Shown here piece by piece: positions 28,035 through 29,471 of a stretch of DNA of 64,000 nt (its first letter is position 1; each line of letters starts with the position of its first letter). A program made the translations under genes and the position numbers. This stretch comes from Polyangium jinanense (GTDB lineage: Bacteria > Myxococcota_A > Polyangia > Polyangiales > Polyangiaceae). Location: positions 38,900 to 102,899 of the forward strand of contig NZ_JAGTJK010000012.1 of assembly GCF_028435265.1 (NCBI RefSeq). Direction: 5' to 3'. The notes under the pieces were generated by a model that worked only from the letters and a program-made list of their open reading frames with translations, did no database searches and had not been told where the DNA came from.

Positions 28035-28469
28035 TCAGCGGGGATGGGCCGCCGCGTGTGTGGCCTCGAAGGCGCGCCGCTGGGCGTGGAGCCACGGGAG
28101 CGCGGTCGCTTGGTCGTCGAAGAATGCATAAGGAAACGATAACTTCGGCGAGAGCACCTTCGTCGCGCGCATGACCATTTCGGCGACCACGCGCAGGGCG
28201 AAATGGGCGCTCACGAAGGCGAGGGCGTCGTACGCCGGCACGACGCGGGGCCCCAGGATCCGCACGCGCCGGGGCACCGTCGTCACGCTCGACACGTCCG
28301 CCAGCGTGAAAAGCCGTCCCTCCCGTTCCTTCACCGTCCGAAGCACATCGGTGATGGCAATGACGTCGTCGATGGCGATATCCGGCTTGAACTCGACGAC
28401 GACCATGTCGGGCGTCACGAATCTGACGCAATGGTCACCGAATCGGAGGACCGTGGGTAGGGAGGACAT
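28035..28469 (-). CDS. STAS-like small protein, paralog 3 of 3
   Basis: About 145 aa. Shares the motifs …V.F.PD…LMDIT/LADVS….VP..VR…ALAFV.A.F..RVV.EM…FFD..EAL.WL with 28505..28945 and 29022..29471. The C-terminal FFD-x4-ALxWL resembles the SpoIIAA/STAS fold end. Confidence 0.55.
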   Translation of the reverse strand: MSSLPTVLRFGDHCVRFVTPDMVVVEFKPDIAIDDVIAITDVLRTVKEREGRLFTLADVSSVTTVPRRVRILGPRVVPAYDALAFVSAHFALRVVAEMVMRATKVLSPKLSFPYAFFDDQATALPWLHAQRRAFEATHAAAHPR

Positions 28470-28504
28470 GGAAAGCTACTTGTATCGCGCCGAGCCTCGA
28501 TCCT

Positions 28505-28945
28505 TCAAGCGGCGTGGTTTGAGGATGCGACGCGCGGCTGTGAATGAAGCCAGGCGAGCGCTTCCTCCTTGTGATCGAAGAATGCGAAGGGGTAACGCGG
28601 CCGCTCGGGTTTCAGGATCCGGATGGCGGCGATGATCATCTCGAGGACGACCCGCACGCCGAACGGCGCGCCGACGAAGGCCAGGGCCGCGTGCTTGGAG
28701 GCGTCTTTGCGGGCGCGGACCGCCTCCCGGAGGTCGCGCGGAACGCTCTTCAAGGGCGTGATATCCATCAGCACCTTGCACGGACCTCGCTCGGCCGTCG
28801 TCCGGTATACATGATCGAGGACGCGGTTGCAGTCGTCCACCTCGAGCGGAACCGCGAACTCCAGGACGAGCAGGTCGGGCGGCACGAACGTCACGACGTG
28901 CGGGCCGAAGCGGATGCGTTCCGTCGAATCGTTTTTCATGGGCAA
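28505..28945 (-). CDS. STAS-like small protein, paralog 2 of 3
   Basis: Same family as 28035..28469. Intergenic gaps within the trio are 35 and 76 bp, consistent with an operon. Confidence 0.55.
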   Translation of the reverse strand: MPMKNDSTERIRFGPHVVTFVPPDLLVLEFAVPLEVDDCNRVLDHVYRTTAERGPCKVLMDITPLKSVPRDLREAVRARKDASKHAALAFVGAPFGVRVVLEMIIAAIRILKPERPRYPFAFFDHKEEALAWLHSQPRVASSNHAA

Positions 28946-29021
28946 GAGGAGCGACCGGCGCCGAGGATCGATAGGTTACCACGAGGCCTACACGAGCGGC
29001 GCGCCTCCCGCACGGTTTGCG

Positions 29022-29471
29022 TCAGCGCGACCCTTGGGGCGTATCGTTCGCGCGGCGTGGGGCGGAGGGGGCGGCGCGGAGCCAGGTGAGCGCTTCCTCC
29101 TTGCGATCGAAAAAGCTGTGGGGATACGCGGGTACGTCGGGCCGGAGGATTCGCACGGCGGCGATGATCATGTCGATGGCGACGCGCACGCCGAACCGCG
29201 CGCCGACGAAGGCCAGGGCCGCGGTCGTGCTCTTGGTGTTGCGGGTGCGGATCGACTCCCGCACGCCCCGGGGCACGTTCGTCACGTGGGTGATGTCCAT
29301 CAGCACCTTGAGCGGGCCTCGTCGGGAACCGGTTTGCCACATCAAGTCGAGGATACGGCCCGCCTGGCTCCCATCGAGGGGAGAGCCGAAATCGACCTGG
29401 AGCATGTTGGGCGGCAGGATGGTCACGAGATGCGGGCCCACGGCAATGCGTTCCGGCGAATCGTTTTCCAT
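29022..29471 (-). CDS. STAS-like small protein, paralog 1 of 3
   Basis: Same family. It is the first gene of the trio. Confidence 0.55.
   Translation of the reverse strand: MENDSPERIAVGPHLVTILPPNMLQVDFGSPLDGSQAGRILDLMWQTGSRRGPLKVLMDITHVTNVPRGVRESIRTRNTKSTTAALAFVGARFGVRVAIDMIIAAVRILRPDVPAYPHSFFDRKEEALTWLRAAPSAPRRANDTPQGSR

Follow-up and report, generated by a model that had tools for sequence, protein, structure and literature searches.

A 64,000-nucleotide stretch of the Polyangium jinanense genome (contig NZ_JAGTJK010000012.1, positions 38,900 to 102,899; hereafter the window) encodes, on its minus strand, three consecutive open reading frames (ORFs), here termed copies A, B and C, whose products are diverged tandem paralogues in a widespread and already catalogued family of ~140-aa standalone cytoplasmic proteins. 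All three are predicted to adopt the STAS (SpoIIAA-like) fold as single-domain proteins. The original prediction, made from the DNA alone, had described three consecutive ORFs of about 145 aa with a conserved scaffold, and the ORF list and our alignment bear this out: the elements PD, LMDIT, VPR..R, ALAFVGA.FGVRV and FFD.KEEAL.WL are common to all three. A and B are 53% identical, and the A/C and B/C pairs 34-39% identical; the weakest pair, A versus C, is recovered by BLASTP at E=2e-22 across 128 residues, which amounts to full-length homology far beyond chance and not to a similarity of low-complexity segments. The DNA of A and B still matches at 75-80% over blocks of 83-144 nt in a constant 532-bp register, the GC content at third codon positions of all three frames (0.84-0.87) is of the coding type, and copy A scores 152.8 bits against the hidden Markov model (HMM) of the family. 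A database protein from P. jinanense (P0001, 144 aa) is 100% identical to copy B and begins at the ATG at 28939, as against a TTG at 28945 in the ORF list (28505-28945).

Copy B was modeled with AlphaFold2 on the basis of eight sequences (pLDDT, the predicted local distance difference test score, 83.8), and the model has the element order β-β-β-α-β-α-β-α-β-α. This is the β/α order of SpoIIAA and the model is superposable on solved STAS domains; structure searches with it, Foldseek included, agree with one another. The STAS-like fold of the original prediction is hence recovered in the model. At the level of sequence profiles the assignment is closer to the margin. Against DUF7793 (PF25056; gathering cut-off 26) the scores are 24.4 bits for B, 22.4 for A (E 1.3e-4) and 15.4 for C, and against the SpoIIAA-like profile PF11964 (gathering cut-off 25) they are 22.5 for B and 19.9 for C, with no match for A. 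A precomputed PF25056 match exists for orthologues of B at 68-81% identity (P0002, P0003 and P0005 are among those with such a match), and the public names of the Polyangium proteins are 'STAS/SEC14 domain-containing' or 'DUF7793 domain-containing'. A word-indexed protein search reached just 6-12 relatives, and the size of the family became visible via an exhaustive profile search, which returned 814 clusters (50% identity) at E<=1e-3. PF11964 is matched by 47 and DUF7793 (at E<0.01) by 24 of 57 diverse members, and the family profile finds the uncharacterised protein of PDB entry 3bl4 at E 8.7e-5. As judged by these scores, the family appears to be placed between PF11964 and PF25056, with borderline scores for the three copies. 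The proteins of these two Pfam families share with the copies their size, the single-domain build, and the C-terminal F-F...A..W-L and β4 A/G motifs, whereas the copies score under the gathering cut-offs and show an apparent signature of their own (G-x-H, P-P-D, R71, G-A-S-F-x-x-R96), which derives from the alignment of the branch itself. Compared with the solved structures 2q3l and 2ook from Shewanella and 3bl4, the window proteins are 13-17% identical, bear an additional β-hairpin at the N-terminus and differ in the conserved residues of α1 and α2. Literature searches found no study of DUF7793.

Canonical antagonists carry their phospho-Ser at the N-terminus of α2 (Ser58 in SpoIIAA, Ser56 in RsbV). 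In the model this helix begins at residue 70 (numbering of the 146-aa form of copy B), and its N-terminus reads V-P-R-G in A, V-P-R-D in B and V-P-R-R in C, with no phosphorylatable Ser/Thr in any of them; thus, alignment and model concur with the earlier observation that the canonical Ser in a DSSG context is lacking. Conservation was computed over 153 aligned family members, and is given in the numbering of the 144-aa form of copy B. The best-conserved positions are R71 (97%), R96 (95%) and A127 (94%), followed by D59, F93, A105 and W130 (each 88%), G90 (87%) and P21 (86%). In the copy-B model, R71 belongs to the first turn of α2 and R96 to that of α3, and, going by the STAS topology, the two are probably neighbors in space. 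The cluster described for the PF11964 proteins 2q3l and 2ook (Ala/Gly in β4, Phe in β5 and A..W-L in α4) is represented here by A87, G90, F120, A127, W130 and L131, and α3 is amphipathic.

These features lead to the proposal, which we consider on balance probable, if with no more than moderate confidence, that A, B and C are phosphorylation-independent binding modules using the α2/α3 face with its two near-invariant arginines. They would act without a phosphorylation-driven partner switch of the SpoIIAA/RsbV kind. The functional site would be the canonical STAS face formed by the N-termini of α2 and α3, with R71, R96, Asp59 and the G-A-S-F motif, and might accommodate either a small ligand of anionic or amphiphilic character or a partner protein that is acidic or phosphorylated, with the paralogues differing in specificity. 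By analogy, partner binding by STAS domains and the lid of the Shewanella proteins would involve this same face. Several points weigh against this proposal. The closeness of R71 and R96 is deduced from the STAS topology and not from a measured distance, and conserved arginines can be structural. About 44% of the family members carry a Ser/Thr one residue ahead of α2, so that phosphorylation might persist in part of the relatives. At 15-24 bits, the three copies fall short of both Pfam gathering cut-offs (25 and 26), and the same-strand order with the MVP and P332 genes in several Polyangium species (see below) leaves room for a local functional tie.

The closest competitor is suggested by the crystal structures of the PF11964 proteins 2q3l and 2ook, for which a ligand site between α2 and α3 has been proposed, and in both of which the β4 Ala/Gly, β5 Phe and α4 A..WL cluster occurs; their authors suggested, from structure alone, either a carrier function for non-polar ligands or an interfacially activated enzyme (Kumar et al. 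2010, PMC2954212). Accordingly, the copies could be small non-polar-molecule carriers, in which the α2/α3 lid would open at the membrane and close around a hydrophobic ligand in the manner of CRAL-TRIO/SEC14 proteins, with ligands differing between paralogues. The prevalence of PF11964 matches among the relatives, the common β4/β5/α4 cluster, the amphipathic α3 and the STAS/SEC14 naming at NCBI all speak for this possibility. We nevertheless regard it as rather unlikely: even for the Shewanella proteins a carrier role has only been deduced from structure (PMC2954212), and the family does not conserve their 'switch-region' residues (A-A-W-D-D in α2; Tyr34/Asp73), the two arginines being dominant instead. 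Moreover, the similarity in sequence to 2q3l is slight (E 0.12), and genes of lipid or quinone metabolism do not occur consistently in the vicinity among the loci surveyed. A different picture, in which the copies form a fast-evolving conflict-type (immunity-like) accessory array, or a hetero-oligomer of paralogues like RsbR/RsbS in the stressosome, draws on the recurrent independent tandem expansion of the family, its presence/absence and copy-number variation between close species, the raised ratio of nonsynonymous to synonymous substitution rates (dN/dS), also seen in the adjacent lipoprotein, and the existence of giant-virus homologues. It appears quite improbable, given that PADLOC has no match for the three copies, P332, MVP or the lipoproteins, that genes for toxins, nucleases or secretion are not regular neighbors among the loci surveyed, that a scan of viral contigs found no relative, that there is no RsbT-like kinase in the window, and that dN/dS remains below 1 save for one very close pair. 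As for the stressosome (RsbR/RsbS/RsbT) in particular, the window encodes no RsbT-type kinase or RsbR-type sensor and the copies are single-domain proteins; likewise, the ABC transporter genes that accompany MlaB-type STAS subunits (MlaF/MlaE/MlaD) are absent among the window neighbors.

The original prediction had raised partner switching, with a sigma-like gene lying upstream as the potential counterpart. With the copies being on the minus strand, that gene is in fact downstream of them and on the opposite strand, with three genes lying in between, and has no more than a Sigma70_r4_2 match. Nor is it syntenic: it occupies this position in two of the five close Polyangium loci with STAS copies, and is absent there in L002, L004 and L005. 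Pfam scans of ~45 genes of the window detected neither a HATPase_c/RsbW/SpoIIAB-type kinase nor a PP2C/SpoIIE phosphatase among them, and PF01740 (STAS) matches none of the copies even at E<=1. Thus, SpoIIAA, RsbV and RsbS (PF01740) differ from the copies, which lack the phosphorylatable Ser/Thr, the PF01740 match and a nearby cognate kinase or phosphatase. That A, B and C are classical partner-switching antagonists of an anti-sigma factor, perhaps with the sigma-like protein as target, is hence hardly credible, and the phosphorylation-driven version of this idea is already largely refuted.

The copies stand at the end of a close-packed same-strand string of genes, which comprises a MutS-like ATPase, a major-vault-protein (MVP) homologue (Table 1), the protein P332 and A, B and C, and whose order is kept in several Polyangium species. 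This arrangement is what favors the idea that the copies serve as subunits (accessory, cargo or adaptor) of a vault-like particle that the adjacent MVP homologue would build in bacteria; a variant of this idea, a cargo-adaptor family, had been entertained originally. To evaluate it, the surroundings of MVP homologues (36-97% identity) at 80 loci in Polyangia, Nannocystaceae, Planctomycetota and Thermoanaerobaculia were translated into six-frame ORFs, and these were searched, with a 10-kb reach, with the family HMM and the MutS-like and P332 proteins of the window. P332 or STAS-like genes lie near MVP in 7 of the 80 loci, all of them from close Polyangium (MVP at least 91% identical), and one of the seven has P332 without a STAS copy. 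Polyangium-like metagenome-assembled genomes (MAGs) with an MVP 82-84% identical to that of the window keep the MutS-like gene and have neither P332 nor STAS-like genes. The remaining ~70 loci have no MutS-like, P332 or STAS-family gene within 10 kb, and no family of MVP neighbors is common to more than 7 of the 80. A conserved co-occurrence of the STAS copies with MVP across lineages was, therefore, not observed, and the cargo-adaptor idea finds no support, the linkage being limited to the closest Polyangium with 0-3 copies. With 73 of 80 MVP loci free of a family member within 10 kb, a MAG (L006) that has MVP and P332 yet zero copies, distant family members in unrelated contexts without MVP, and an MVP far more constrained (dN/dS 0.11-0.13) than the copies, we deem a role as vault subunits very unlikely. 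The sole likeness to the eukaryotic vault accessory proteins PARP4/vPARP and TEP1 is that the copies adjoin the gene of an MVP homologue, whereas there is no relation in sequence or fold and the linkage is not conserved outside one genus. The placement of the copies at the end of the string is thus genus-specific; it may give co-expression, and it does not define function. Slightly less improbable, if still doubtful, is a composite in which P332 and one to three STAS paralogues (with the fast-evolving lipoprotein) constitute a lineage-specific vault add-on that tethers cargo or regulates assembly, or in which, more broadly, DUF7793-type arrays are a hitherto unrecognized, rapidly diversifying binding-protein system of a conflict-related or hetero-oligomeric kind.

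Within Polyangium, the window and sp. 6x1 have all three copies, y55x31 has A, a 27-aa remnant of B, and C, 15x6 has A and C, P. fumosum has B and C, and the metagenome contig L002 has one B-like copy; the MAG L006, which retains MVP and P332, has no copies and is also missing the convergent lipoprotein found next to copy C in the window. Orthologues of A are 86-94% identical in Polyangium spp. y55x31, 15x6 and 6x1 and absent in P. fumosum, and those of C are 69-94% identical in four Polyangium genomes. The copies represent three orthogroups, A, B and C, which were differentially lost to leave 0-3 copies per genome. This variation in copy number indicates that the triplication is old within the genus and was followed by differential loss. 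It occurs on a constant backbone of genes (DSD, DUF7691, which is unrelated to DUF7793, M23, MutS, MVP, P332, lipoproteins and TetR). The adjacency to MVP is a local arrangement and not a conserved module.

Evolutionary rates between Polyangium orthologues were compared at similar synonymous divergence (dS ~0.15-0.35). The dN/dS is 0.22-0.38 for A, 0.38-0.91 for B and 0.37-0.73 for C, with a value of 1.05 for one near-identical pair of C; it is below 1 for the copies in all other cases. The copies evolve faster than the flanking MVP, P332 and MutS-like genes (together 0.11-0.19, with P332 at 0.13-0.15), and the convergent lipoprotein is the fastest-evolving gene of the neighborhood (0.63-0.86). 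The values for the copies indicate purifying but relaxed selection, consistent with accessory, partly redundant genes.

Beyond Polyangium, metagenome loci were retrieved with a motif-selected sub-alignment of the family, and 10 of these 38 (mostly short) loci have at least two copies. Locus L084 has three tandem family genes with 4-bp overlaps and L092 two tandem genes; in L086 (1540-7903) 12 DUF7793 domains are packed into 6 kb in nine genes, including one for a 578-aa protein with four fused domains. Since the copies of one locus are 35-54% identical to each other as against 12-37% to copies elsewhere, the tandem expansions are independent. The GC content of the family loci spans 0.33-0.77, and the contexts of the distant members are mutually unrelated, with neither MVP nor any conserved neighbor gene. 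A conserved pair of an unknown protein with a STAS protein was considered and dropped, the genes upstream in L083 and L084 being unrelated to P332 and to each other. The array of L086 begins directly after an ATP-synthase gamma gene, and a member in L109 (10088-15747) lies beside atpC-atpD-atpG-atpA; this adjacency in two unrelated lineages (GC 0.44 and 0.67) is probably a coincidence.

The finding is real but fairly ordinary, with the adjacency to MVP being a quirk of one genus. Its immediate value is modest: it removes tempting but unsupported links, from STAS to partner switching and to vault cargo, and assigns the genes to an already catalogued but uncharacterized family. The recurrent tandem expansion, the two arginines on the STAS face, and the fast evolution with 0-3 copies per genome in one genus could guide a first experiment. 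The more intriguing gene is the MVP homologue, which is strongly conserved and has no conserved neighbor.

Proteins with the predicted fold were also encountered elsewhere. Giant-virus proteins have the same fold as model m47d1e5d80e45 (BFVD; Foldseek E 1.5e-4 to 7e-4), namely those of Aureococcus anophagefferens virus, CeV-01B and Marseillevirus LCMAC201, the last of which is annotated as DUF7793; a scan of viral contigs found no relative. Within the window, a further ORF (140 aa; Table 1) gives a weak partial match to the family HMM (E 3e-4, profile positions 22-79) and none to Pfam, and may be a very distant relative or a chance match.

Table 1. Genes discussed in the text, in window coordinates
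Feature	Position	Strand	Description
Copy A	29022..29471	-	149-aa standalone protein, predicted STAS fold, DUF7793/SpoIIAA-like branch; from the ORF list
Copy B	28505..28939	-	144-aa protein, predicted STAS fold; ATG start at 28939 as in the database protein
Copy C	28035..28469	-	144-aa protein, predicted STAS fold; most diverged of the three
P332	29584..30582	-	332 aa; directly upstream of copy A; signal-peptide-like N-terminus
MVP homologue	30593..33409	-	938 aa; Pfam MVP_shoulder 3.4e-15, Vault_3 1.9e-8, Vault_4 1.5e-4
MutS-like ATPase	33488..35350	-	620 aa, MutS domain V only; Pfam MutS_V 6.9e-19; upstream of MVP
Convergent lipoprotein	27426..28022	+	~200 aa, start uncertain; lipobox-like LLLLGGC read from the sequence
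Sigma-like gene	25212..26243	+	Strand opposite to the copies; Sigma70_r4_2 match only, E 9.6e-7
Partial STAS-family match	56527..56949	+	140-aa ORF
DUF4336 paralogue	46038..46724	+	228 aa
DUF4336 paralogue	46744..47430	+	228 aa
Repeat-bearing ORF	11605..12588	+	No Pfam match
Repeat-bearing ORF	12770..13597	+	No Pfam match
Giant Ser/Thr kinase	7680..11498	+	Pkinase, AAA_16, TPR
Giant Ser/Thr kinase	14656..18555	+	Pkinase, AAA_16, TPR
Giant Ser/Thr kinase	39219..43097	-	Pkinase, AAA_16, TPR

In the string that ends in the copies, the gaps are 78 bp between the MutS-like and MVP genes, 10 bp between MVP and P332, 112 bp between P332 and A, 82 bp between A and B and 35 bp between B and C. Of the operon originally claimed, the common strand and the short gaps (112, 82 and 35 bp) stand, while a shared transcription unit is only inferred from them; an operon of A, B and C is plausible. 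A scan for promoters and terminators yielded nothing above shuffle expectation and no terminator-like site between the genes, inspection by eye of the spacer between P332 and copy A revealed no convincing sigma-54 GG-N10-GC spacing, and neither Rfam nor a tRNA scan gave a match in the window. The 2-kb bin containing all three copies (28001-30000) has the lowest GC content of the window (0.644 versus ~0.68 overall).

The MutS-like ATPase scores far under the NCBIfam cut-offs for MutS1 and mutS2, and its pairing with MVP is kept in Polyangium, including the MAGs with the 82-84% identical MVP and no STAS genes, and not in remoter MVP loci. Bacterial MVP homologues have been reported earlier (bioRxiv 10.1101/872010), and homologues at 60-97% identity occur in many MAGs of Myxococcota, Planctomycetota and Thermoanaerobaculia; literature searches found no study of bacterial MVP gene neighborhoods. 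P332, which has no match in Pfam, NCBIfam or PADLOC, was found solely next to MVP in the closest Polyangium loci (84-96% identity). Its sequence suggests a signal peptide (MLPKTGPRSRARAWILLGALLFAPPAFA|AD), which is followed by a Pro-rich linker and then a β-rich remainder, and, as a guess, it might be a secreted or outer-membrane β-rich protein. The convergent lipoprotein, whose stop codon is 12 bp from that of copy C, has no Pfam match, and is present wherever the STAS copies are and, like them, lacking in L006; beyond it lie another small lipoprotein gene and then a TetR gene.

Among the other genes of the window, two neighboring ORFs without a Pfam match have short Asn/Leu-rich repeats at their N-termini (NALNVNALNVNA; LALNSLALNGIALNGIGL), and the adjacent DUF4336 paralogues with near-identical N-termini represent another tandem duplication. 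The window further encodes three giant Ser/Thr kinases (~1270-1300 aa) that share one domain architecture, and orthologous giant kinases flank the MVP cluster in P. fumosum (L001).

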